Made by a program: the position numbers and the translations under genes
Source of the DNA: Leucoraja erinacea
Lineage: Eukaryota
Reading direction: 5' to 3'
DNA length: 64,000 nt
Assembly (NCBI RefSeq): GCF_028641065.1
Contig: NC_073396.1
Span: 13,020,001 to 13,084,000, forward strand
Notes under the pieces: generated by a model
Databases searched by the model: none
What the model was told of the DNA's origin: nothing
What the model saw: the letters and a program-made list of their open reading frames with translations, nothing else
Shown here: positions 3,121-64,000 of the stretch, piece by piece
How the letters are laid out: each line of letters begins with the position of its first letter
Position numbering within the stretch: the first letter of the stretch is position 1

Positions 3121-5286
3121 CTAGGACAACATCCAGAAAAAACAAGGATATTATAAAACTGTAAATGATCTCTAAGATAAAATAAAAGCACCATAAATGA
3201 TCTTGAAATGCTGCAAAACATTTTACAGTTTGGAAATGTGCTCTGTATGGTGATTGATATAACATGAGAAAGGCACGGACAGTTGGATCACCCCAGCATC
3301 TCCTGTGTTGCAATGTGATGATGACTGGGTTGTCTGCTTAAGCCAGTTGAGTGATATTGATTAATACATTGAGCAAGATTTGGGTTTTGTTTTTGAATTG
3401 GTATCACTTGATATTTTATATCATTTGTGAAGACAGATCAGTCCTTAATTAGTTTTATCATTAGTTTTCACCATTCCTGCGTCTCTTCAATACTGCATTG
3501 AGAGTCATTGTGAAATTTGGCCTCAAGTATGTGGAGATGGATTTGAACCCACTATCCCTGCCTCATTGGTAATATCGCCCATTACAATTCTTCACGAAAA
3601 GAAAAGTGCTGAGGAGCTCAGCAGATCGGGCAGCATATGTGGAAGACAATGTTTCAGGTTTAGACCCTTCTTCAGACTGGGTTCCTCTATCCAATCTCTC
3701 CACAGATGCTGCCTGACCCATTGAGTTCCTCCAGCAGTTTGTTTTTATTGCTCAAGATTTCAGCATCTGCAGTTTATTGTATTTCCCTTACTCTTCTTTT
3801 TTTCAGTCAGTCCCTCGGGATAGAAGATGACTTATCTTCACTGGTTCTGAGGCGGCTGATGAAACCTATGTAAGACGTGCAGACCATCCCACAGATGGGG
3901 CAGGTGGTGGTTGACTAAACAGGCAGGTGGGTAGTTTAAAAGGCAGGTTACTCTTTAAACTACTGACACAGAAGTTCTCAACACCATGTGCAATGTTCCT
4001 ACTCCACTTTGAGTGGTCATGGACCAAGTATTCTCAAGACTTAGTGGGGATGTTCCATTCCTTCAAGGTATCTTAAGCTCAAATAATTGACTCTACCTGC
4101 CTGGCATTCTCCAGGTTATCTCTTTCCATGTACTGAGTGTCTGCTTCAGAAGTATGACCTTGGACATGTGAATAACATGGCTTACTCAACGCAGCCCATG
4201 GACTATAACCAGGGACTCAATATCATGGATGTTTGATTATCCTTCTAATGAAAATGCTTGACTGCTGTGGGTAGATCAGGAATCAGAAGCATTTGAAAGG
4301 TATATTGCTGTCTAATAGAGAATGTTTTATGCCACACCTAAGGTTTTTGTCTTCAAACACCCTTTTCCGCAGATTTTGCTGATACATTGTGATACAGTGA
4401 TGAATTTGATCAGCAATGTCTGTTTTCACAGAGATATGGCTCCCACTAATTAGTAGGTGGACTTACTAGGGTTTTGTTGTGTACTCTAATTGTCAGAGGG
4501 ATTTTGTGTTGTGCAGTAAGAACATGCTAGTAGAGGACCTTTATGCTGTGGATATTGAGTGTAAGAGCCTCAATGCAAGCATTGACAATGGCTTGGAAGC
4601 TGATCTAACACTTTGATGGAAAGTTTGTTGGAGATATGATATTGGACCAAGAGGGACTGAGAAAAATCTTGGAGCAATGATGCAATAGTTTGTTGTAGAC
4701 ACGCTAGTTAATATCAGGGCTTGCATGTCGTTTTGCACTTTGAAAGGTCACGGGCCAGAGGTTCCCAAGAGTATTGTCCATTTTCCAGCAAGTTATGAGC
4801 ATAACCTTAAATCTTTTTCTTTGTCCACCTAGTAATCCTCTCCCATAACATAACTCAGCGTTTTAGATGTCAGATGTCAGCCATGTGAGCAAATTAGCCT
4901 GTCCAAAGTAGCCAACTGTGATTGAATAGAAACCTCAGTGATGAGGTTGAGCTGGGAAACAGCTTACCTGGTTCTCTGAAAAATGTGTTACAATATATCG
5001 TGTAACATCTAATAAAAAGGGTATTAAAAGTGTCTGATCAGTCTGAAGAACGTCACCCATTCCTTCTCTCCAGAGATGCTGCCTGTCCCACTGAGTTACG
5101 CCAGCATTTTGTGTCTATCTTCAATTTAAACCAGCATCTGCAGTTCTTTCCTCCACGTATTAAAAGTATGTTGAGGTATTAATTAAAATAACATCCAATA
5201 ATTATAAAGTCTGCCAACACAGCACCACCAAAATCTTTAGCATTTCAGTGTTTTACTACCCTATACTGCAATTTCACCTCTTCAGT

Positions 5287-5340
5287 GCGGTGGGAGATTG
5301 CAACCTTCACGTGGTCCACCCTGTTTCGACGAATGCAATC
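5287..5340 (+). ncRNA. Minimal HDV-like ribozyme motif, copy 1
   Basis: P1 GCGGTGG/CCACCCT, P2 GATTGCA/TGCAATC, P3 ACC/GGT, L3 TTCACGT, J4/2 CGAA (catalytic-position C at 5330). Confidence 0.8.
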
Positions 5341-5422
5341 AACCTGACGTGCATAAATGGAAGATCAAACAGAACAAGTTGTCTTACAGCTTTAGGTTGT
5401 GCACACCATATGCAAGAAGAAG
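5287..5422 (+). mobile_element. Short ribozyme-headed retroposon, copy 1
   Basis: TSD acctcttcag(t/c) at 5276-5286 and 5423-5433; (AAG)n tail; homologous to the copies at 23575 and 42343. Confidence 0.88.
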
Positions 5423-5615
5423 ACCTCTTCAGCATACCCAATATGTTCTCTATACATCCCCCACAAACCCTCTATGCAACCTTGTCCTAACCTGTCTCCT
5501 TGACACCAAGCCTTTTATATTTGTTAACATTCCAGTGGTGCATCATGAAATATGTTTGCAATATTAAAAATCCCTTGTAAATGGAAGTTGTAATTTCCTC
5601 CACTCTGAAACTTAC

Positions 5616-23393: not shown

Positions 23394-23574
23394 AAGAAAA
23401 TGAGGTAGGTGTCATTGAAACCAAACTAATTGAGTTTGGCAAGGAAAATCTGAGGCTTTTTTTCTCAAGTAGAATTCGGAGTCAGATTTGGATTAAAAGG
23501 GCCAGATTGTAATTAGTTTAGAGGTACAGCTAAGGAAATGTGTCCTTTGGCCCACTGAGTACAAGCTGACCATT

Positions 23575-23707
23575 CTTCTTTCGTGTGGCATGCACAGCCT
23601 AAAGTTGTAGGACAATTTGTTCTATTTGATCTTCTGTTTGTGCACGTCGAGTTGATTGCATTAGTGGAAACAGGGCAGACCATGTGAAGGTTGCAATTTT
23701 CCACCCC
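23575..23707 (-). mobile_element. Short ribozyme-headed retroposon, copy 2 (inserted in a V-SINE)
   Basis: TSD a(a/t)gctgaccatt at 23563-23574 and 23708-23719; same 5' end and (AAG)n tail as the other copies. Confidence 0.88.
23654..23707 (-). ncRNA. Minimal HDV-like ribozyme motif, copy 2 (partly decayed)
   Basis: Minus strand reads GGGGTGG AA AATTGCA ACC TTCACAT GGT CTGCCCT GTTTCCA CTAA TGCAATC. Confidence 0.72.
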
Positions 23708-24054
23708 ATGCTGACCATTGATTACATGTTTACATTAGTTCTATGTTATCCCAGGTTGCATTCACTCCCTACACACTAGGGGCAATTTATAGAGACCATT
23801 TAATGTACAAACCTTTGGGATGTGTGAGGTAAATGGAATACCACAAGGAAACCCTAAGGAGTCGTATGGAGAATGTGCAAAGTCCACATAGACAGCACCT
23901 GATGTCAGGGTTGAAACTGGATCTCTGGCATTGTGAGGCAGCAGGTCTAGATGTTGTGTCACAACCTAAGGTGACAACTTTCTGCAGAACTTTAGAATTC
24001 TATACTTCATTGGGCTGGTGGCTGCTTAGTTGGTTAATTTATTAATGGTTGAGA

Positions 24055-27000
24055 TAATAGACAATAGGTGCAGGAGTAGGCAATTTGACCCTTCGAGCCA
24101 GCACCGCCATTCAATGTGATCATGGCTGATCATCCCCAATCAGTACCTCGTTCATGCCTTCTCCCCATATCCCATGACTCTGCTATTTTTAAGAGCCCTA
24201 TAGCTCTCTTGAAAGCATCTAGAGAACTTGCCTCCACCGCTCTCTGAGGCAGAGAATTCCACAGACTCACCACTCTCTGAGAAAAAGTGTCTCCTTGTCT
24301 CCATTCTAAATGGCTTACTCCTTATTCTTAAACTGTGGCCCCTGGTTCTGGACTTCCCCCAATATCGAGAACATGTTTCCTGCCTCTAGCGTGTCCAACC
24401 CCTTAACAATCTTATATGTTTCAATGAGATACCCTCTCATCCTTCTAAACTCCAGAGTGTACAAGCCAAGCTGCTCCATTCTCTCAGCATATGACAGTCC
24501 AGCCATCCTGGGAATTAACCTTGTAAACCTACGCTACACTCCCTCAATAGCAAGAATGTCCTTCCTCAAATTAGGGGACCAAAACTACACACAATACTCC
24601 AGGTGTGGTCTCACTAGGGCTCTGTACAAATGCAGAAGGACCTCTTTGCTCCTATATTCGATTCCTCTTGTTATAAAGGCCAACATGCTTTCTTCACTGC
24701 CTGCTGTACCTGCATGCTTACTTTCATAGACTGATGAACGAGGACCCCCAGATCCCGTTGTACTTCCCCTTTTCCCAACTTGACGCCACTTAGATAGTAA
24801 TCTGCCTTCCGGTTTTTGCTACCAAAGTGGATAACCTCACATTTATCCGCATTAAACTTCATCTGCCCTGCCCACTCCCCCAACCTGTCCAAGTCACCCT
24901 GCATTCTCATAGCATCCTCCTCACAGTTCACACTGCCACCCAGCTTTGTGTCATCTGCAAATTTGCTAATGTTACTTTCAATCCCTTCATCCAAATCATT
25001 GATGTATATTGTAAATAGCTGTGATCCCAGCACTGAGCCTTGTGGTACCCCACTAGTCACTGCCTGCCATTCTGAAAGGGACCTGTTAATCTCTACTCTT
25101 TGTTTCCTGTCTGCCAACCACTTCTCTATCCATGTCAGCACTCTACCCCCAATACCATGTGTCCTAATTTTGACAACTAATCTCCTATGTGGGACCTTAT
25201 CAAATGCTTTCTGAAAGTCCAGGTACACTACATCCACTGGCTCTCCCTTGTCCATTTTCCTAGTTACATCTTTAAAAAATTCCAGCAGATTAATCAAGAA
25301 TGATATCCCCATCGTAAATCCATGCTGAATCGGACCGATCCTGTTACTGCTATGCAAATGTGCGGCTATTTCATCTTTTATAACTGACTCGAGCATCTTC
25401 CCCACCACCGATGTCGGGCTAACTGGTCTATAGTTTTCTCTCTCCCGCCTTTCTTAAAAAGTAGGATAACATTAGCCACCCTCCAATCCACAGGAACTGA
25501 TCCTGAGTCTATAGAACATTGGAAAATTATCACCAATGCATCCATGATTTCTAGAGCCACTTCCTTAAGTACCCTGGGATGCAGACCATCAGGCCCTGGG
25601 GATTTATCAGCCTTCAGTTCCATCAGTCTATCCAACACCATTTCCTGCCTAATGTGGATTTCCTTCAGTTCCTCTGTCACCCCAGATCCTCTGGCCACTA
25701 CTATATCAGTAAGATTGTTTGTGTCCTCCTTAGTGAAGACAGATCCAAAGTATCTGTTCAACTCATCTGCCATTTACTTGTTCCCCATAATAAATTCACC
25801 TTTTTCGGTCTTCAAGGGTCCAACTTTGGTCTTAACTAATTTTTTCTTCTTCACATACCTAAAGAAGCTTTTACTATCCTGCTTTATATTCTTGGCTAGC
25901 TTACCTTCGTACCTCATCTTTTCTCCCCGTATTGTCTTTTTGGTTATCTTCTGTTCTTTAAACATTACCCAATCCTCTTGCTGCCCGCTCATCTTTGCTA
26001 CGTTGTACTTCTTCGCTTTAATTTTTTATACTGTCCCTGACGTCCCTTGTCAGCCATAGTTGCCCTTTCTCCCCTTGGAATCTTTCTTCCTCCTAGGAAT
26101 GAACTGACCCTGCACCTTCTGTATTATTCCTAGAAATACCTGCCATTTTTGTTCCACTGTCATCCCTGCTAGTGCATCTTTCCAGTTAACTTTGGCCAAC
26201 TCCTCCCCTCATGGCCCCAACTGTAACACTGACACCTCCGATCTACCCTTCTCCCTCTCCAATTGTAGATTATACCTGACCATGTTATGGTCACTACCTC
26301 CTAATGGCTCATTAACCTCGAGGTCCTTTATCAAATCTGGTTCATTACATACCATTAAATCCAGAATTGCCTTCTCCCTGGTAGGCTCCAGTACAAGCCG
26401 TTCTAAGAATCCATCACGAAGGCACTCTACAAAGTCCCTTTCTTGGGGTCCAGTACCAAACTGATTTTTCCAATCTACCAGCATGTTGAAATCTCCCATA
26501 ACAATCACAGCATTACTTTTGCTACATGCCAATTTAAACTCCTGATTCAACTTGCGCCCATGTCCAGGCTACTGTTTGGGGGCCTGTAGATTAGTCCCAT
26601 TAGGGTCTTTTTACCCTTACAATTCCTTAGTTGTATCCATACTAACTCCACATCTCCTGTTTCAATGTCACCCCTGGCAAGGAACTGAATTTCATTCCTC
26701 ACCAACAGAGCAACACCACCCCCTCTGCCCACCTGTCTGTCTTTTCGATAGGAGGTATATCCTTGGATATTCAGTTCCCAGCCCTGGCCCTCGTGCAGCC
26801 ATGTCTCAGTAATTCCCACAACATCATAGTTGCCTGTTTCTAACTGAGCCTCAAGCTCGTCCACTTTATTCCTTGTACTTCGCACATTCATATGCAGCAC
26901 TTTGACCTCTGTATTCACTTCCCCCCTCGCACCGTTCGCAATTTGCCCGGACCTTACTTTGTTGTCCCTCCTCGAGCTTTCCTTCCCATGAATTCGAGAA

Positions 27001-27498
27001 TCTTTTGTAATTTTTCCTGTAGCCGCTTCCCTTTCAACTCCATCTTTATACTCCCAATTCCCCCAATCCCCCCCCCCCCCCCCCATTATTTAGTTTAAAC
27101 ACCCACGTGTAGCCCTAGCAAACCTGCCTGCCAGAATATCGGTCCCCCTCCAGTTAAGGTGTAACCCGTCCCTTTTGTACAGGTCACCCCTACCCCAGAG
27201 GAGATCCCAGTGGTCTATAAATCTAAATCCTTGCTCCCTGCTCCAGCCCCACAACCACACATTCAGATCCCCTATCTCCCGGTTCCTGTCCTCACTAGCA
27301 CGAGGTGCTGGAAGCAATCCAGAGATAATCACCCCAGAAGTCCGGCATTTCAGTCTTCTTCCCAACTCCCTGAACTCGTGTTGGAGAACCTCCTTCCTCT
27401 TCTTCCCGATGTCGTTTGTGCCTACGTGCACAACTACTGCCGGCTGTTCACCTTCTCTCGAGGATGTTCTGAATTTGGCTTGAGATATCGGCTCCATC
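24055..27498 (-). mobile_element. CR1/HER1-type LINE, near full length but frameshifted (ORF1 esterase end, ORF2 endonuclease + RT, 3'UTR)
   Basis: ORF1 motifs VVVHVGTNDIG and DGLHL; endonuclease motifs GITETW, IYRPP, MGDFN, GGSDH; RT motifs YLDFQKAFDKV, GVPQGSVLG, KFADDTK. Broken into several frames. Confidence 0.95.
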
Positions 27499-27745
27499 AA
27501 TACATTTTGCTGCCATCAATATAATGAAGGGATTAGAGAGAAGACAGGAGAATGGACTTTAGGTTCAAATGTGATCTTTTGATTGCAATCCATTTGGACT
27601 ATGTATGCTGTTTTTCTTTCTTTCTTTGATATTTTTGTGAATTAGCCAATGTGCTAATTGTTAACAAATTATAGCTGTGCAACTATCAGCAAATTTTCAA
27701 TATAACAATGCAAATTAAATTTCTGTCAACTTGTCTGTTTTGTAG

Positions 27746-28033
27746 GAGCAGATACTGGTGGAATGGAATCTGAAGCTAGCACGGATGTTACTATTCAGCA
27801 AGAGAAAGTCAGCTGTGGGACTACTAGTGAAGGAGATTCGCAATACTTAATAACCGAACAAATGGAGAATGAGGATTCTCTTCCTCAAACGTCTGTTAGC
27901 AATGGTGGAGAGTCGGATATCAGCAAGGAAATGGTAGATCTAAAAGTTATATGGAACAAAAACAAATATGATCTGAAAGTGCCACTCGATAGTACAGGAG
28001 CTAGCCTGAAAGAAAAGATTCACTCCCTCACAG
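27746..28033 (+). CDS. UBFD1: UBFD1 exon 2
   Basis: ttttgtag|...SVSNGGESDISKEMVDLKVIWNKNKYDLKVPLDSTGASLKEKIHSLT|gtatgt; start of the ubiquitin-like domain. Confidence 0.93.
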
Positions 28034-29610
28034 GTATGTCTGAAGGGAGGATGGGTTGCACTACTTTGTTGTGTTATATACCGGTTAAGAATTAAATATA
28101 GAAACAAGGAACTGCAGATGTTGGTTTATATCAAAAATAGACAGTGCTGGAGCACTCAGTGGGATCAGACAGCATCTCTAAAGGAAAAGGATAGGGCCAA
28201 AATATAGAAATAAGGAACTGCAGATGCCAGTTTAGACCAAGGATAAATACAAAGTGCTGGAGCTATCCTTTTTCTCCAGAGGTGCTGCCTGTTTTGCTGA
28301 GTTACCCTAGCACTTTGTCTATATTAAGAATTAAATATACATTGGGAGTGGTGCTATTATGCATAACATTGCAGACTTCGGCAATTCTTTAGATTCTATA
28401 TAGCAGAGACTGACATAGAAAATAAGAAACATATTTGCATTTCTATGGTAGACAAAAATGCTGGAGAAACTCAGCGGGTGAGGCCGCATATATGGAGCGA
28501 AGGAAATAGCCAACGTTTCGGGCTGAAACCCTATGGTGCTTTTGGGGCGACTTTATAATTGATGTCTAAACTAATTCTCAATCCATGCCAGTATATTATC
28601 TACATTTTCGTGTGCTTTAATTTATTTTTAACTTCTTGCATGGCGCCTTTATTGTAATTAATGTTTCCAGATTTTTCCTGTGAATTTTTCTTGCAAAGTG
28701 AGCACGGCATCTGTCTGATGTCTCTTGTTTCCTTTGTCTTTTTGTCTCTTGCAGACTCACAAAGACTTTTTTCCATTTTCCTATTGACAAAGATTTTGTA
28801 GTTTTTCTTTATTACTAGATGCTTTTATATTCAATTTTTCTATACTGTTTTCTGCATCCTTTGAGTTCTGAAATTTGCTCAAGCTAATTTGCCTTTTTAA
28901 CAAGAGTCACCTTTCCCTTTTGTAGTAACAAGGAACTGCAGTTGCTGGTTTACATACAAAGACAAATTGCTGGAGTAACTTAGTGGCTCTCCAGAGATGC
29001 TGCCTGACCCACTGAGTTACTATAGCATTTTCACCCTTTTGTGCAGTGATCATTGTCTACAGTTCTTTGTTTTAAATACATATAGTGATAATACCGAACT
29101 CAGTTAAAGGGGGAAATCGGCAATAACATATACCATCTTCCCCCACCCCATGGTCTGTTGCAACAAAGGTTTACTATGTAAAATGTGGTGAGTTCACTTC
29201 GACAATGAGTCGCTGTTGTGGGTATTGAGAATGGTGGTAATGAAAAGCACGCTATGCTGACATCAGGATAGCATATTTTATTCTGTATACATCCCATTGC
29301 ACACCATCTTTCCTGGACTGCCTCTTCAGACTGGAAATTTCATGGGGAACATCTCAGTTCATTTAGCTCTGAGTAAGAACAATTTACGTGGCTGTTTTAA
29401 GCTGTCAATTTGATGCAGTTGAGGGAAGGTATAATAGTGATTCGGGTGGATAGAGAGGAAGGATTCAACCCTTGTATTGATTGCAATAGATACAATGTTA
29501 ATGTATATTGATTGTAATACAATGTTGATCTATATCACTTGTCCTGATAGTAAAGAGCGCCTAAATTAATTTTCAAAGATTTAACTGGATCAACGTTATT
29601 TCCCTTTCAG

Positions 29611-29819
29611 GTCTCACTCCTGCCATGCAGAAGGTCATGTTCAAGGGGCTGCTCCAGGAAGATAAAACTCTACGAGAATTAAAAGTAACAAATGGCGCAA
29701 AAATCATGGTTATTGGATCAACGATTAATGATGTTTTAGCAGTAAATACACCAAAGGAGGTTGTCCAACAAGAGGCCAAAGCTGAAGAACCCAAAAAAGA
29801 ACCTCTATGTAGGCAAAAG
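29611..29819 (+). CDS. UBFD1: UBFD1 exon 3
   Basis: tttcag|(G)LTPAMQKVMFKGLLQEDKTLRELKVTNGAKIMVIGSTINDVLAVNTPK...KEPLCRQK|gtgagt; 209 bp. Confidence 0.96.
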
Positions 29820-30977
29820 GTGAGTTTCACTTTTTGATATAGTGAACATTGGGAACATGACATTGCATCAGTTTTGAAGGGCTGATAGGCATCGGATTTT
29901 ATGGTAGATCCGTATCTTAATAGAACTATGCACATGTATCTGAAATTTTAGTTGACACACTACTGTCTCCAGATTTTAATTATCTATGCCATAATGTGCA
30001 GTCCTCAATTTGATTTTGGGTTGTTGATGGCATCTTCTGTAGCTTTGCATTGTCACCCATGAAACTGTGGACTCTACAAGATGGTCATTACTGCATTTTT
30101 GTTTAAAGCTCCCTATGGGATCCATGTTGGGGATGTTGGATATCGCCTTTTGACAGGGTTATGTGCATCAGCACATTGTCATTTTTGTATCCATTCCAAG
30201 ACTAATTTTGCTAACTGGTCTGTAGTTTGGGATAGTTGTTTTTAAATCTTTGGAGCTTGTTGGTTTGAGCTGTTTTCTGGTGCCTTTGTTTCATTCATTT
30301 AAATCTTGGTTGCACCCATAATTAAAGCAGCCATTGTCAGTTTGAGAGCTTAATAAATTGATCTTTGTTCTTTTTAAGAGGAGCAAATTCCATCTTTGTA
30401 CTTTTTTTTTAAAGCGCACATGTGCAAAGTCAACTGGAAAAGTTAATGCAGACTTGGGACATGGCGCCCATAATTTTCCATTCTATAAGATTTGAGTTGA
30501 AACTGGGACTAGTAACGCCGATGGACAGTGAACTTTGGGGACTCTCTTTGTGTGCTTTGATTTTTAAGGACTTGTGCTAAAATAAACTCCAGTAATTGAC
30601 AAATTCTACTTGGGGCATGAACAGCTACTTGGGGCATGAGGAGAGAAGGCAAACAATTTCTGTTTGATCAACTTTGTTATTGGGATCCAGTAGATTAGAT
30701 GGCCACGGGCGATTATGGTAACGGTAGTGTGGGATTCTTGAGGGGTTGAATGGTTTTAGGGGTAAAACTGTCAGATAGAAAAGGAAGTGAGTTATTAATT
30801 CTGTGGAATTTTTAAATTGCTGCTGACCTTTATCGGAAGATATTCTGTTAAATTCAGCTAAGAATGCAGTAAAAACTGAGCATTATTTTAGTGAGACACC
30901 ATTTTCAGATAAGCTACCAGAGATTATTCAACATATCCCTTTGGCTCTGGTTTTGATGACTGTTTTGCTTGCTTTAG

Positions 30978-31043
30978 CAACACAGGAAAGTGTTGGACAA
31001 AGGAAAACCAGAAGATGTTATGCCATCCATTAAGGGTGTTAAG
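30978..31043 (+). CDS. UBFD1: UBFD1 exon 4
   Basis: ctttag|QHRKVLDKGKPEDVMPSIKGVK|gtatgt. Confidence 0.95.
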
Positions 31044-31244
31044 GTATGTAGTTACCAATTATATTAGTTGTTGTGCCTTGTATAGAGTTTTTGTGGAAGA
31101 TGGGGGAGGTGGTCATTATTGACATAGTGTATATCTCTCACCTCAATCTCCATTCTGAATGCCACTTGAATTTAAAAGTGTGATAATTTTTTTGCTGAAC
31201 ATTTGTACAGTTCAGTACAAATGTTGGTACAAACTTGGTACAGT

Positions 31245-31715
31245 GCTTAGTCTGCCTAGACCTACGGGATCTCCCTGTTGCCAACCATTTAAACTCTCCT
31301 TCCCATTCCCATACTGACCTTTCTGTTCTGGGCCTCCTTTGTCAGAGTGAGGCCACACGCAAATTGGAGGAACAGCACCTAATTTTGCTTGTAGTTGGCA
31401 ACCCAGTGGTATGGACAATAAACTTGCTAATTTTTAGTAATTTCTACTTGCACTCCTCTCCATCTAGATGTGTTACCAGTTCCACAGTTCTCCACATTGT
31501 TTCTCTTTTGAGATCACATCAACATTGGGCTAACCCTGCTGGAGGACATTTGTGGCCAGCCTTGATTGGTCCTGGCCTTTTCTCACCTCCAGCTCTTCAC
31601 CTGAGGAGCTTTCCATCTGAGGAAGGGTCCCGACCCGAATCGTCACCCATCCTTCTCCAGAGATGTGGTCTGACCTGCTGAGTTACTCCAGCACTTTGTG
31701 TCTATCTTTGGCCTA
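31245..31715 (+). mobile_element. Penelope-like 3' fragment
   Basis: LPVANHLNSPSHSHTD...KLEEQHL, plus a terminal repeat with a hammerhead-like motif at ~31617. Confidence 0.8.
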
Positions 31716-31988
31716 AAGCCAGACATCTGGGCTGGTGGTCTTGGTAGAGTGCTGAGGACCTGTGCACTTTTGAAGACCTAGAAACTTCTGATAGATTGAG
31801 GAAGTTTGGAAACTGGTGTTGTGGTTGGATGTCATCAGTGGCACTGATATTTTGTTGCTAATTAAAATGTCCTGGACCATAAATCTTTTTTCTGTTTTTG
31901 CAACTGATGTGATTTTGTTGATACATTGAATCAAAAGGTGATGAGGAATAGTGCTGTGTTAATAACTGTTGCTCCCTGAACTTTGTAG

Positions 31989-32094
31989 GAGCGCTTGCCA
32001 AGTGTACCATTGTCTGGCATGTACAACAAGTCGAGTGGAAAAGTAAGGTTAACCTTTAAACTGGAGCAGGATCAGCTCTGGATTGGAACAAAAG
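31989..32094 (+). CDS. UBFD1: UBFD1 exon 5
   Basis: tttgtag|ERLPSVPLSGMYNKSSGKVRLTFKLEQDQLWIGTK|gtaagt. Confidence 0.96.
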
Positions 32095-33024
32095 GTAAGT
32101 TCTGCAGATGGCATTTCTGTTCCTTCTGTGAATCATTGATCTTATAACCTGCTGTGTAACAAATAAAAATATTTCACATTAGTTTATTTAGCGTCAAAGA
32201 GGAAAATTATCAGATTTTTTAAACACTGGTTGCAGGGTAAGATACCTGGCCTACATTTATTTCACTGGTGCCGACCATCTGGTATTAGGTGGGCTCAAGA
32301 GCTGATTTAGAAAAAATAAAGGAACTGGCCTATACTGCATTTTGAACAGTGTTCTCGTACATTTTTTAAGTCAGCAGGTGCTTTGACAATGTCACATTGG
32401 ACTGATGACTGATGTTTGGTCAAAATAAGTACAGAATGTTTTGGTAATTTAAGATCATTTGTGGCGTGGAAAAGACATTAACATTGCAACATGACATATC
32501 GGAACTGATTTTGAGAATAGGGTACGATTGTTTGAAAGTTCTCCAGTCATTTGTTTTACCAGGTGTTTTAGGATGGAGTAAAATGGGGAAAGTTTTATGA
32601 CAAGGTGGAAGACATGAGATTAAATAACAAATAGAATGAACTTGCAAAAGGGGGTTGTAATGGCATAAGAAACAGAAAATTAGTCTAAAGGAGATATAAT
32701 TGGGAATGGAACAATGATCAAAAACTGAATTAAATTCAATCAAATATTGTCTAGAAAGCAAGCTGCTGTTCAAGTCTAATTACACAGATTTTACCAAAAT
32801 GTTTAAGTGCACGGCAACGGTTTGGTGTGGGAGTGCTACAACAAATTGACAACTAATCAGCAGTATGTTTGTATTTTGCCTTGAATAATGGTTTGAGTTC
32901 TGGAAGTAGAAAGATGAGAAATAAATGTCCAGGCGTTATATCTCTTGTAGTTGGTCAGCACAATTGAGTCCCTATATTTCTGTGAGGTTCTGATGTGAGT
33001 AATTTCCTTTTTTTTCCCAAACAG

Positions 33025-33107
33025 AAAGAACTGAGAAGATCCCCATGGGCTCTATCAAAAATGTGATCACCGAAGTTATTGAAGGACATGAAGATTATCA
33101 CATGATG
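33025..33107 (+). CDS. UBFD1: UBFD1 exon 6
   Basis: aaacag|(E)RTEKIPMGSIKNVITEVIEGHEDYHMM|gtgagt. Confidence 0.96.
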
Positions 33108-34195
33108 GTGAGTACTGGGAGAGCATGTGACCAGGAGGAAACCCTGCGGCAGGGCAGCAAGCCGTTTGACTATTCAATATTGTCGAGGTAGACGTGAGAC
33201 TGCGAGATGGGATACAGCAGAAGCTTGGGTGAGCAGGAAGTTGGCAGCTAATTAGTAGAGGGAGCAGCAGCTAGGGTTTGAGAGGAGGCATACGTAGGTG
33301 GACAATCTTCACTGATAGCTTTTGCATTCCGCTTGCTTTACTCTCCCAACAGTTAATGGCCGGATGCTTATTGACAACTCGCATAACTTTAATGCTGCCA
33401 CTCCATAATAGCCACCAAGACACATTAACTGTCCTTGTTTTATCTATGGCCTGATTTGCAGACCTTCATGACTTACAAGTGAGGAGCTGTTTACGTTGGA
33501 ATGTCTTATGACATACTGTGGAAGAGATATTGGAGGAAGTTAGTCTTGATCTCCTGAGCAGCTGGGATGCATGAAACTGATCCCAACTCTGGAGTTGAGT
33601 TCTGGATTGAAGGGAAGATTGGAGGAGGAAAGGTTGCTCTTAGAAATCAAATTTGATTTTCAGGATTTGATTTGGTGTTGGGCAAACTAAAGGTTGTGGG
33701 CTTTTAATGTGGTGAAGGTGGGGAGGTTATGCTAATTTTGGGGCTTGAGTGCATTGGATGAACCTCTAACCACTGGATTTCTAATTTCTAGATTAGAGAT
33801 TCTTTGAATGAACTTCTTTTGAATAAAACGCCATTTCAAAGAAGCAAAACTGCAAAATATCCATGTTCTTCTCTGAGAACCACAATTTTGGATATCAAAA
33901 CCATTCATTGTTTAGAAGCTCAAAGGTTATTGTTCAATGAAAAGTAGGCTTGCTATTCCTCTCTCAACAACATCAGAACACAAACTGGTTATTCATTCTT
34001 CTGTAAAATCTTTCCCTTGACTTCATGCACAACAACAGTAGTTGGACCTCAAGGTACTTCGGTGCATGTACAGTAGTCTAAAGATGCTTTGGTAAGAAAT
34101 AGGATTGTGTACAAGTAGAAGATTGCTTTGCCTGTAAATCATCAGAAATTACTTTCTTTAAAATAATACTTCATTCTCATTTCCTTTTTTTCCAG

Positions 34196-34306
34196 GCATT
34201 TCAGCTGGGTCCCACTGAAGCTTCTTACTACTGGGTTTACTGGGTGCCTACACAATATGTTGATGCAATCAAAGATACAGTCCTTGGAAAGTGGCAGTAT
34301 TTTTGA
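34196..34306 (+). CDS. UBFD1: UBFD1 exon 7 (terminal coding exon)
   Basis: ttccag|AFQLGPTEASYYWVYWVPTQYVDAIKDTVLGKWQYF*. Joined CDS is 879 nt, i.e. 292 aa. Confidence 0.97.
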   Translation, partial: AFQLGPTEASYYWVYWVPTQYVDAIKDTVLGKWQYF

Positions 34307-41951: not shown

Positions 41952-42342
41952 TGTGCTATGTTCCTTGTTGAATATTGTATGTAATAGAACGCAGGGGATA
42001 TGCTAGGGTTGAGTAGTGGAGCATACATTTTGTTGTTGCTGTTGGTCTACAATATCAAAATGATGCCTTGTTTTAATTTACTGAGTTAATTTGCTTATGT
42101 GGTTGGTAAATGGCAAATCATTGATAATATTGTCGCCAAGGAACTTGAAACACCATTGATTCTGATTGGGGCATGTACTCTGCCACAATTTCTGAAGTTA
42201 ATAACTAGCTCCTTCATCTTGTTGACATTGAGGCAGTGGTTGTTGTCCTGACACCATGTTACTAAGTTCCCTATCTCTTTTCTGTACTCCATTTCATCAT
42301 TGTTCATGATCTGGCCCATTACAGTGGTGTCACCTGCCAACT

Positions 42343-42396
42343 GGGGTGGAAGATTGCAACCTACACGTGGTCCGCCCTGTTTTGACAAATGCAATC
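42343..42396 (+). ncRNA. Minimal HDV-like ribozyme motif, copy 3
   Basis: GGGGTGG AA GATTGCA ACC TACACGT GGT CCGCCCT GTTTTGA CAAA TGCAATC; P1, P2 and P3 fully paired. Confidence 0.8.
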
Positions 42397-42483
42397 AACC
42401 CGGCATGCACAATCAAATAAGATCAAATAGAACAAGTTTTCCTACAATTTTAGGCTGTGCACGCCATACGCAAGAAGAAGAAG
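42343..42483 (+). mobile_element. Short ribozyme-headed retroposon, copy 3 (inserted in a Rex/Babar RT fragment)
   Basis: TSD acctgccaact (42332-42342) / atctgcaaact (42484-42494); (AAG)n tail. Confidence 0.88.
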
Positions 42484-42775
42484 ATCTGCAAACTTGTAGG
42501 TGAAGTTAGTGTTCAATTAGCTGGCCATGCAGTCATGTGTGTTTAAGGAGTATAGCAGGGGACTGAGATCGCATCCTTATTTAATAGAACGCAGGGGATG
42601 TGCTGGGGTTGAGTAATGGAGTATTAAATGAACAATAGATTTTGTTCCCAGCAAGGCTGTATTTAGCACTATATATCATCCTTGCCCCCAGGCATCACAT
42701 GAAAATCTCCTTTATAGTACATAGCAGATAATTCAAATTGTTGCATTTTTGGATATAACCTAGAATTTCAATCAG

Positions 42776-43667
42776 AGGATGCTAGGAGGCTGCAAGGTGA
42801 CTTGGATAGGCTGGGTGAGTGGGCAAATGCATGGCAGATGCAGTATAATGTGGATAAATGTGAGGTTATCCACTTTGGTGGCAAAAACAGGAAAGTAGAC
42901 TATTATCTGAATGTTGGCCGATTAGGAAAGGGGGAGATGCAACGAGACCTGGGTATCATGGTACACCAATTATTAAAAGTAGGCATTCAGGTGCAGCAGG
43001 CAGTGAAGAAAGCAAATGGTATGTTAGCATTCATAGCAAAAGGATTTGAGTATAGGAGCAGGGAGGTTCTACTGCAGTTGTACAGGGTCTTGGTGAGACC
43101 ACACCTGCACTATTGCGTACAGTTTTGGTCTCCTAATCTGAGGAAGGACATTCTTGCCATGGAGGGAGTACAGAGAAGATTCACCAGACTGCTTCCTGGG
43201 ATGTCAGGACTTTCATATGAAGAAAGACTGGATAGACTCGTTTTGTACTAGCTAGAATTTAGAAGATTGAGGGGGGATCTTATAGAAACTTACAAAATTC
43301 TTAAGGGGTTGGACAGGCTAGATGCAGGAAGATTGTTCCCGATGTTGGGGAAGTCCAGAAAAGGGGTCACAGTTTAAGGATAAGGGGGAAATCTTTTAGG
43401 ACCGAGATGAGGAAAAAATGTTTCACACAGAGAGTGATGAATCTCTGGAATTCTCTGCCACAGAAGGTAGTTGAGGCCAGTTCATTGGCTATATTTAAGA
43501 GGGAGTTAGATGTGGCCCTTGTGGCTAAAGGGATCAGGGGATATGGAGAGAAGTCAGGTACAGGATACTGAGTTGGATGATCAGCCATGATCATATTGAA
43601 TGGCGGTGCAGGCTCAAAGGGCTGAATGGCCTACTCCTGCACCTATTTTCTATGTTTCTATGTTTCA
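42776..43667 (+). mobile_element. 5'-truncated CR1 LINE
   Basis: RT C-terminus (WQMQYNVDKCEVIHFG...LVRPHL.YCVQFWSP) plus 3'UTR ending in (CTATGTTT)n. Confidence 0.92.
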
Positions 43668-48435: not shown

Positions 48436-49778
48436 ATGCTGGAGTCAATTATAAAAGATGAAATAGCGGCACATTTGGATAGCAGTAACGGGATCGGTCC
48501 AAGTCAGCATGGATTTACCAAGGAGAAAACATGTTTGACCAATTTTCTGGAATTTTTTGAGGATGTAACTAGGAAAGTGGACAAGGGAGTGCCAGTGGGT
48601 GTAGTGTACATGGACTTTAGAAAGCATTTGATAAGGTCTCACACAGGAGATTAGTGGGCAAAATTAGAGCACATGGTATTAGGGGTAGGGTACTGATGTG
48701 GATAGAGAAGTGGTTGGCAGACAGGAAACAAAGAGTCGGGATTAACGGGTCCCTTTCAGAATGGCAGGCAGTTACTAGTGGGGTACCACAAGGCTCGGTA
48801 CGGGACTGCAGCTATTTACAATATACATCAATGATGTCGATGAAGGATTCAAAGTAACATTAGCAAATTTGCAGATACAAAGCTGGGTGGCAGTGTGAAC
48901 TGTGAGGAGGATGCTATGAGGATGCAGGGTGACTTGGACAGGTTGGATGAGTGGGCAGATGCATAGCAGATGCAGTTCAATGTGGGTAAATGTGAGGTTA
49001 TCCACTTTGATGGCAAAAACAGAAGGCAGATTATTATCTGAATGGTGTTAAGTTGGGAAAAGGGGAAGTACAAAGAGATTTGGGGGTCCTTGTTCATCAA
49101 TCACTGAAAGTGAGCATGCAGGTACAGCAGGCAGTGATGAAAGCTAATGGCATGTTGGTCTTCATAACAAGAGGAGTTGAATAGAGGACCAAAGAGGGCC
49201 TTCTGCAGTTGTGCAGAGCCCTAGTGAGACCACATCTGGAGTATTGTGTGCAGTTTTGGTCTCCAAATTTGAGGAAGGACATTCTTGTTATTGAGGGAGT
49301 GCAGCGTAGGTTCACCAGGTTAATTCCCGGTATGGCAGGACTCTTATATGTTGATAGAATGGAGCGGCTGGGCTTGTACACTCTGGAATTTAGATGGATG
49401 AGGGGGATCTTAATGAAGCATATAAAATTATTAAGGAATTGGACACGCTAGAGGCAGGAAACATGTTGCCGGTGTAGGAGGAGTCCAGAACCAGGGGCCA
49501 CAGTTTAGGAATAAGGGGTAAGCCATTTAGAATGGAGATGAGGAAAACCTTTTCACCCAGAGAGTTGTGAATCTGTAGAATTCTCCGCCTCAGAAGGCAG
49601 TGCAGGCCAATTCTCTGGATGCTTTCAAGAGAGAGTTAGATAGAGCACTTAAAGATAGCAGGGATATGGAGAGAAGGCAGGAACGGCGTTCTGAATGTGG
49701 ATGATCAGCCATGATCACAGTGAATGGCGGTTTTGGCTCGAAGAGCCGAATGGCCTACTCCTGCACCTAGTGTCTATT
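48436..49778 (+). mobile_element. 5'-truncated CR1 LINE, same subfamily as 24055-27498
   Basis: MLESIIKDEIAAHLDS...QHGF...GVPQGS...YCVQFWSP, followed by the CR1 3'UTR. Confidence 0.92.
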
Positions 49779-61966: not shown

Positions 61967-64000
61967 TATAACCATATAATAACAATTACAGCACGGAAAC
62001 AGGCCATCTCGGCCCTTCTAGTCCGTGCTGAACACGTATTATCCCCTAGTCCCATCTACCTGCACTCAGACCATTCCTTTCCCGTCCATTATAACTATCC
62101 AATTTATTTTTAAATGATAAAATCGAACCTGCCTCCACCACCTTCACTAGAAGCTCATTCCACACAGCTACCACTCTCTGAGTAAAGAAGTTCCCCCTCA
62201 TGTTACCCCTAAACTTCTGTCCCTTAATTCTCAAGTCATGTCCTCTTGTTTGAATCTTCCCTACTCTCAGTGGGAAAAGCTTATCCACGTCAACTCTGTC
62301 TATTCCTCTCATCATTTTAAAGACCTCTATCAAGTCCCCCCTTAACCTTCTGTGCTCCAAAGAATAAAGACCTAACTTGTTCAACCTTTCTCTGTAACTT
62401 AGTTGCTGAAACCCAGGCAACATTCCAGTAAATCTCCTCTGTACTCTCTCTATTTTGTTGACATCCTTCCTATAATTAGGCAACCAAAATTGTACACCAT
62501 ACTACAGAATTGGCCTCACCAATGCCTTGTACAATTTTAACATTACATCCCAACTTCTATACTCAATACTCTGATTTATAAAGGCCAGCACACCAACAGC
62601 TTTATTTACCACCCTATCTACATGAGATTCCACCTTCAGGGAACTGTGCACAGTTATTCCCAGATCCCTCTGTTCAACTGCATTCTTCAATTCCCTACCA
62701 TTTACCATGTACGTCCTATTTTGATTTGTCCTGCCAAGATGTAGCACCTCACACTTATCAGCATTAAACTCCATCTGCCATCTTTCAGCCCACACTTCCA
62801 ACTGGCATAAATCTCCCTGTAGACTTTGAAAATCTACTTCATTATCCACAACACCACCTATCTTAGTATCATCTGCATACTTACTAATCCAATTTACCAC
62901 ACCATCATCCAGATCATTGATGTACATGACAAACAACAGTGGACCCAACACAGATCCCTGTGGCACCTCACTCGTCACTGGCCTCCAACCTGACAAACAG
63001 CCATCCACCATTACTCTCTGGCATCTCCTATTCAGCCACTGTTGAATCCATCTTGCTACTCCACCATTAATACCCAACAATTGAACCTTCTTAACCAACC
63101 TTCCATGAGGAACCTTGTCAAAGGCCTTACTGAAGTCCATATATACAACATCCACTGCTTTACCCTCATCAATTTCCCGAGTAACCTCTTCAAAAAATTC
63201 AAGAAGATTAGTCAAACATGACCTTCCAGGCACAAATCCATGTTGACTGTTCCTAATCCAGATGCTTATATATATTATCTCTAAGTATCCTTTCCATTAA
63301 TTTGCCCACCACTGACGTCAAACTAACAGGTCTATAATTGCTAGGTTTACTCTTGGAACCCTTTTTAAACAATGGAACAACATGCGCAGTACGCCAATCT
63401 TCCGGCACTATTCCCGTTTCTAATGACATTTGAAATATTTCTGTCAATAGCCCCTGCTATTTCTACACTAACTTCTCTCAATGTCCTTGGGAATATCTTG
63501 TCCGGACCTGGAGACTTATCCACTTTTATATTTCTCAAAAGTGTCAGTACTTCCTCTTCTTTGAATCTCATAGTTTCCATAGCTACTCTACTTGTTTCCC
63601 TTACCTCACATAATTCAATATCCTTCTCCTTGGTGAATACCGAAGGAAATAAATTGTTCAATATCTCCCCCCATCTCTTTTGGCTCTGCAGATAGCTGTC
63701 CACTCTGACTCTCTAATGGACCAATTTTATCCCTCGTTATCCTTTTGCTATTAATATAGCTGTAGAAACCCTTTGGATTTACTTTCACCTTACTTGCCAA
63801 AGCAACCTCGTATCTTCTTTTAGCTTTTCTAATTTCTTTCTTAAGATTCTTTTTACATTCTTTGTACTCCTCAAGCACCTCATTTACTCCATGCTGCCTA
63901 TAATTATTGTAGATCTCTCTCTTTTTCTGAACCCAGTGTCCAATTTCCCTTGAAAACAATGGTTCTTTCCAATTTTTACTATTTCCTTTCAACCGAACAG
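61967..64000 (-). mobile_element. CR1 LINE of a different subfamily, runs off the window
   Basis: KSPGPD, NYRPVSLTSVVGK, YMDFSKAFDKV, VPQGSVLGPLLF, KYADDTK, with frameshifts. Confidence 0.94.

Follow-up and report, generated by a model that had tools for sequence, protein, structure and literature searches.

A predicted P4-less HDV-like ribozyme heads an abundant non-autonomous retroposon derived from a Vingi-type LINE in the genome of Leucoraja erinacea

A short repeat found three times in a 64-kb stretch of the Leucoraja erinacea genome (the window) is a bipartite, non-autonomous retroposon that arose by internal deletion of a Vingi-type LINE, here designated LINE-A, and its first 54 nt are predicted to fold into an HDV-like ribozyme that lacks P4. 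The explanation that best fits the data as a whole, to which we assign a probability of roughly 0.82, is that the element (family A) is a deletion derivative of LINE-A, that its RNA 5' end would be made by the ribozyme, and that it would be mobilised by LINE-A.

The three homologous copies reported in the initial annotation are all present, at 5287..5422 (+), 23575..23707 (-) and 42343..42483 (+), as established by direct reading and pairwise alignment. They are mutually 83–86% identical (E about 1e-34 to 1e-38), and no fourth copy was detected in the 64-kb window. The target-site duplications (TSD) of 11–12 bp could also be read directly, at 5276..5286 and 5423..5433 for copy 1 (10/11 match), 23708..23719 and 23563..23574 on the minus strand for copy 2 (11/12 match), and 42332..42342 and 42484..42494 for copy 3 (9/11 match), and in 3/3 copies the upstream duplication directly adjoins the first nucleotide, G1. 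The predicted ribozyme occupies 5287..5340 in copy 1 (G1 at 5287, predicted catalytic C at 5330), 23654..23707 on the minus strand in copy 2 (G1 at 23707, C at 23664) and 42343..42396 in copy 3 (G1 at 42343, C at 42386). The 3' part that is common with LINE-A, in copy 1 the last codons, stop, short 3' UTR and (AAG)n, spans 5380..5422, 23575..23610 (-) and 42442..42483, respectively. Every copy is damaged: copy 1 has a P1 mismatch at position 2, copy 2 has P2 cut to 6 bp together with an L3 change, and copy 3, in which the helix pairs are all kept, has one change in L3. Copy 2 probably lies within the first intron of the plus-strand UBFD1 gene, in antisense orientation and downstream of a putative first exon; the UBFD1 exons at 27706–34303 (+) encode ubiquitin-like and PH_UBFD1_C domains, and copy 2 is upstream of these on the opposite strand. 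There was no Pfam match among the ORFs tried near copies 1 and 3. The window also carries remnants of another RT-encoding LINE that is unrelated to the ends of the element (24056–27515, 42718–43653, 48436–49778 and 62046–63712), which we take to be CR1/L2-like from its motifs, and many copies of one or more further short repeats.

Family A has at least 10,164 copies in the 2.19 Gb genome, as counted with a 30-mer from the middle of the element at up to two mismatches (the reversed pattern gave 0 matches), and 5,345 sites match the complete 54-nt head with up to three mismatches. Two samples of 30 copies were selected regardless of 5' end: in the one chosen by the 3' half the 5' end falls at nt 1–3 in 28 copies, and in the position-ordered one (two of which are a duplicated pair) it falls at nt 1–2 in 26. 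The 5' ends are therefore fixed and not scattered like LINE truncations, the pattern that the initial annotation had named as contrary to its proposal. A TSD was present in 72 of 87 copies (29 of the 87 having been picked by whole-length likeness), while 12 lacked a TSD and 3 an anchor; its length is 9–13 bp in 66 of the 72. In 55/72 the upstream duplication either adjoins G1 directly or shares a single G with the element, and the element boundary coincides with the predicted cleavage site. Tails consist of (AAG)n which, together with the TSD, is a typical hallmark of target-primed reverse transcription. The overlap by one G was seen in 27/72, and 41/72 have T as the target base at -1, a T|G junction preference. 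Near-identical sequence was found in 20/23 sequencing runs among those listed, under eight organism labels as well as in metagenomes, and contigs from three runs part company at the same G1. Several loci (G000:C1:133818 and C1:134433, that is L158 and L159; L008, L011 and L028) have two independent copies of the element within 3 kb, a degree of clustering that exceeds what the mean density suggests.

The first 54 nt parse as a nested double pseudoknot with 7-bp P1 and P2, a 3-bp P3, and a P1.1 made up of one C-G pair and a U-U juxtaposition, as in CPEB3. P4 is absent, and the short linker first proposed in its place is 5 nt long, lying between the G-U after P1 and the predicted catalytic C in family A consensuses and in LINE-A; a search pattern describing the family A ribozyme with P4 had 0 matches. 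A descriptor composed with this fold already in view (7-bp P1, 6–8-bp P2, 3-bp P3, U-N-C in L3, G at P1.1, C-N-A-A) matched only the three copies on both strands of the 64 kb, two strictly and the third with one P1 mismatch, and it was satisfied by 0/5,000 dinucleotide shuffles of a near-consensus element. Nested MFE folding of a near-consensus copy, a method that cannot model pseudoknots, gave no signal (z about 0). The comparison with Rfam models that had been recommended turned out negative for family A: the scan of the whole window gave no HDV or CPEB3 match at E<=5, a near-consensus copy reached 19.5 bits on RF00094 (cut-off 50) and 14.4 bits on RF02682 (cut-off 44), both over nt 1–54, and RF00622 did not match family A itself.

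The fold can be examined across the ribozyme-headed families of this genome, designated A–F (see later), where compensatory changes occur at 11/17 helix pairs. In the consensuses of families A–F all P2 and P3 pairs hold, with changes on both sides at 6/7 P2 pairs and 2/3 P3 pairs, the 3' strand of P2 being located by best complement, which favours pairing; alignment-based parses gave identical P2 strands for A, D and E, and single copies did so for C. Where P1 can be resolved, which is the case for four families, both-sided changes affect 3/7 of its pairs; the family B consensus is one pair short in P1 and that of family F (5 copies) has a mismatch. Families B, D, E and F rest on consensuses of 5–11 copies because strict single-copy parsing mostly failed. 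L3, the G-U after P1 and C-N-A-A are almost constant across all of them. From this covariation, we strongly infer an HDV-like nested double pseudoknot of CPEB3 type in the first 54 nt, in line with the fold and the P1/P2/P3 covariation anticipated at the outset. Within family A, G1 is paired at the cleavage site and C-N-A-A is present in all consensuses, and the master-level differences (positions 8, 32 and 45) are all structure-neutral. Inserted copies decay neutrally, without selection on the ribozyme, as shown by non-CpG changes at 49/1290 in the ribozyme versus 17/376 and 19/471 elsewhere in the element, and all 18 pairs plus the core are retained in 9/29 position-ordered copies. Since inserted copies mutate in this way, variation within the family is uninformative on the fold. 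The predicted catalytic C, described initially as kept in all copies, is indeed kept in the three of the window; genome-wide it is C in 24/29 and T in 5/29 position-ordered copies, because it lies within a CpG.

The tail of the element reads as the final codons of a LINE ORF, and a pattern with the Trp codon upstream of the tail identified 258 sites, which are the 3' ends of LINE-A. The LINE-A ORF closes with a Cys/His motif, and its stop runs into the last ~42 nt of the short element. One locus (L222) is a single ~2.8 kb insertion with an 11-bp TSD that matches nt 3–77 (80%) and 99–141 (93%) of the element, and so LINE-A is the autonomous LINE sharing both ends that had been sought. In all, the first ~75 and last ~42 nt of LINE-A are common to the element, around a filler of ~25 nt, and the 5' end of LINE-A bears the same P4-less form of the ribozyme. 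Because both ends are shared, family A is an internal-deletion derivative and not a Pol III SINE, and the suggested likeness to R2 SIDEs holds, a LINE-derived head and tail being joined by internal deletion. LINE-A is about 3 kb (L115 and L126 were left out of the reading of its extent and inversions), with copies that are 84–89% identical over long alignments; among those read, none has an intact ORF, all being broken by stops and frameshifts. Its 3' fragments are truncated at scattered points, unlike the 5' ends of the short element.

LINE-A copies align collinearly with aa 2–935 of a 963-aa APE-RT protein (P0001), which gives LINE-A a compact single ORF with APE endonuclease and RT. No RNase H was found in P0001 or in the Anolis protein P0054 (see below), and the collinear map leaves no room for one in LINE-A. 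By its predicted ORF and domain make-up, LINE-A fits the Vingi definition given in PMC13708176. Since it is just 32–36% identical to LINE C, the LINE of family C, it may represent either a divergent Vingi or a different relative of Ingi without RNase H. Of the partner types originally suggested, RTE-like or Vingi-like, a partner of the second type (APE-RT, no RNase H) was found, and the first can be set aside. LINE C was also considered as the partner and rejected, having only the AAG tail in common with the short element.

Among 30 loci with the LINE 5' marker, 13 and 10 belong to two other short deletion derivatives, 6 continue as LINE and 1 was left unassigned. Given these two further, independent derivatives, reduction to a ribozyme-plus-tail unit occurred at least three times. 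The ~25-nt filler gave just 7–12 nt matches to LINE-A (E>=2.7), some of them to its 3' end in reverse complement. It forms a 7-bp hairpin with the LINE-derived tail (element nt ~93–109, L163). The 5' arm of this hairpin is identical to the LINE 3' end read in reverse complement, which suggests that templated sequence was inserted where the deletion was joined. Inversions at the 5' end of LINE-A are very frequent, with 15/30 loci chosen by 5' UTR (two may be duplicates) having the 3' part inverted upstream; the observation covers L188–L217, L112, L114, L118, L120, L121 and L127, and families D–F show the same arrangement. The LINE-A inversions resemble products of twin priming in which the inverted piece stops at G1 or close to it.

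The Rfam model of the CPEB3 ribozyme (RF00622) exceeded its 35-bit cut-off at 48/59 scored sites, with up to 64.9 bits. None of 14 prokaryote controls passed the cut-off, and 10/10 rescanned loci did. The matches printed as sequence belong to five further families, B–F, and none to family A; the sites inspected are the ends of sister Vingi-type families. The likeness to the CPEB3 ribozyme, noted initially from the same L3, carries more weight than the first reading gave it; sister families B–F pass the RF00622 cut-off. Family B (L076–L085, L236) is a P4-less short element of ~190 nt with an AAG tail, TSDs and CPEB3-like P1 and P3; most copies have a 6-bp P1 and some a 7-bp one, and the family has the same type of 5-nt linker as family A. 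LINE C (L062–L075 and L096–L102, e.g., G000:C18:37370000-37376120) is a young Vingi-type LINE of 3.15 kb with full-length copies that are 94–97% identical, an AAG tail, TSDs and a full-P4 ribozyme scoring 53–62 bits on RF00622; an intact ORF was not present in the copies read. It is 51% identical to P0054 of Anolis carolinensis, the source of Vingi-1_Acar, and its listed relatives are from Anolis, Branchiostoma, sea urchins and insects. The precomputed domains of 120 listed relatives include no RNase H, and RNase H-bearing single-ORF relatives are just 31–33% identical. Ribozymes of families D, E and F stand directly before, or inverted relative to, ORF remnants of the LINE C protein type. Family D includes a TSD-bounded short element of ~230 nt (L061), and ribozymes of family F (L234, L239) continue straight into a Vingi-type ORF. 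Family E is old and low-copy (L086, L088, L092, L220, L230, L231, L244 and L245), and a Vingi-type ORF remnant adjoins 6/8 copies.

How these pieces may work together can be sketched as follows. RNA polymerase II would read through a family A copy within a host transcript, and the predicted ribozyme would cut 5' of G1 to give an exact RNA 5' end. The shared ends and TSDs suggest that the LINE-A protein would recognise the common 3' end and nick target DNA, and that reverse transcription from the (AAG)n tail would leave TSDs of 9–13 bp. Once inserted, the copies decay neutrally. P4-less ribozymes are reported to cleave in vitro (PMC10879173), U:U at P1.1 is described as compatible with fast cleavage (PMC13635239), and L1Tc/NARTc and R2 SIDEs are precedents (PMC3383444, PMC3414825). 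The element is present in two runs guessed to be RNA and in one metatranscriptome. Counted against this explanation is that insertion of an RNA as short as 140 nt is usually complete, whatever made its 5' end.

Transcription may contribute to the 5' end as well. The first ~77 nt could double as an internal Pol II promoter like Pr77, the ribozyme merely trimming the product; L1Tc and NARTc are reported to carry such a dual system (PMC3383444). This would be compatible with the best explanation, and we regard it as a serious possibility that falls somewhat short of an even chance. In each of the three deletion derivatives the retained LINE 5' end is ~75 nt or longer and exceeds the 54-nt fold, and the primary sequence of families C–F is more conserved than the fold requires, but an extra G at -1 that lacks another explanation was seen in only 2/72 copies. 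Capped L1 templates often leave such a G, and the test is weak because the element begins with four G.

Alternatively, the P4-less motif might be a vestige, an inherited fold that does not cleave, with the fixed 5' end coming from a transcription start at +1. Scores under the Rfam cut-offs, the neutral decay of copies, and RNA-type contigs that pass through G1 into the flank with no sign of RNA starts there (which contigs cannot show) would agree with this, but the P1–P3 letters of family A differ from those of other families at 11/17 pairs with every pair kept. It is this retention of pairs despite changed letters, along with the same linker type in family B, that makes a vestige hard to uphold, and LINE-A itself has the P4-less form with no match to a P4-bearing version; we consider the idea unlikely. 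Far less credible still, and largely refuted, is the view that the element is a conventional Pol III SINE, or a LINE truncated at random, that resembles HDV by chance. The element is small, and loose A/B-box matches with one mismatch do occur, but in the wrong order or place; as first observed, it has no exact Pol III A or B box. The Rfam scan of the window showed no tRNA, 5S or 7SL match, and the head does not qualify as small-RNA-derived. Moreover, the head is the LINE's own 5' end, no shuffle fitted the descriptor, and the 5' ends are not scattered.

The sister families also bear on the origin of the mammalian CPEB3 ribozyme. Counted by eye, the consensus of family E agrees with that of Rfam CPEB3 at 60/64 positions outside L4 when 6 copies are used and at 59/64 with 8 copies, where support for positions 1–5 is weak. 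Agreement extends over the entire 7-bp P4 stem, and one compensatory P2 pair accounts for two of the mismatched positions. HDV-like ribozymes are reported to have only about six invariant nucleotides (PMC8256844), which makes convergence unlikely. The CPEB3 ribozyme reportedly has no non-mammalian outgroup (PMC8233481) and, with near-copies in the present genome, it may be an exapted Vingi 5' end; a Vingi relic, X12_LINE, is described as still present in the human genome (PMC5753468), and domestication of retroelement ribozymes has been suggested in general (PMC7761336). The simplest reading would be insertion of a Vingi-type element into a CPEB3 intron followed by retention of its ribozyme, the homology being seen within 67 nt. 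More widely, it seems probable that an HDV ribozyme of CPEB3 type, P4-bearing or P4-less, stands at the start of Vingi-type LINEs in general, and that the CPEB3 ribozyme is one such 5' end, inserted in the CPEB3 intron before the marsupial/placental split. Among the 59 sites scored out of 119,833 candidates, which gives a lower bound, no RF00622 match lies in sense within the five CPEB loci of this genome, and the one closest to a CPEB exon is a family C fragment 282 kb away on the opposite strand. If the proposal is true, this fish genome holds the missing CPEB3 outgroups together with thousands of potentially active minimal ribozymes among its genes. The CPEB3 ribozyme, which is conserved in mammals and has been linked to memory (PMC8233481), would thereby gain an origin that can be tested.

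For the P4-less HDV ribozyme, tied hitherto mainly to gut phages (PMC10879173), family A would supply a eukaryotic home and a concrete job. It would also add Vingi-type LINEs to the elements known to carry 5' ribozymes; this clade is now employed for RNA-only gene insertion (PMC13708176), in which the 5' end of the template matters. Ribozyme activity in vivo could be tested genome-wide, given the 5,345 near-consensus copies, as a strand bias against sense-oriented intronic copies is predicted. In the literature searched, mostly titles and abstract openings, no description of family A or of a Vingi origin of CPEB3 was met. Family A may well have a database name already, and patent work on Vingi-1_Acar may mention a 5' ribozyme.

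In its architecture the family is less novel than first supposed, as both R2 and the L1Tc/ingi clade are known to have internal-deletion elements with a ribozyme at the head (PMC3414825, PMC5786205); what appears new is the P4-less ribozyme, the Vingi-type partner, the vertebrate host and the very high copy number. Vingi LINEs, like LINE-A, are described as compact single-ORF APE-RT elements without RNase H (PMC13708176), and bipartite non-autonomous derivatives such as family A are known for Vingi-1_EE and Vingi-1_Acar (PMC5786205); the same source lists six clades with 5' ribozymes, and Vingi is not one of them. Minimal P4-less HDV-like and theta ribozymes share with family A the lack of P4, a short J1/2 and a catalytic C that comes first in J4/2, but nearly 99% of the minimal P4-less hits are reported from phages, with origin and function called undetermined (PMC10879173), whereas that of family A heads a vertebrate retroposon family. 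The mammalian CPEB3 ribozyme (RF00622) has the same L3, G-U after P1, G1-U wobble and C-N-A-A; family A differs from it in the other P1–P3 letters, the lack of P4 and the absence of an RF00622 match, and the CPEB3 ribozyme is a single intronic copy while those of families A–F are mobile-element ends. The R2 SIDEs of Drosophila also have a 5' ribozyme joined to a LINE 3' end via internal deletion (PMC3414825); unlike them, family A is not rDNA-specific and has an APE-type partner, TSDs and a high copy number. NARTc/RIME/SIDER of the trypanosomatids (L1Tc/ingi clade) are likewise short, dispersed and non-autonomous (PMC3383444, PMC4035085, PMC5786205), and are reported to combine the 3' end of a related LINE with its first ~77 nt, in which an HDV-like ribozyme cuts 5' of +1. 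Family A departs from these in its vertebrate host, RNase H-less partner and more than 10,000 copies, and in a ribozyme that has a G1-U wobble, a CPEB3-type L3 and no P4, where L1TcRz is described as having P4 (PMC4035085).
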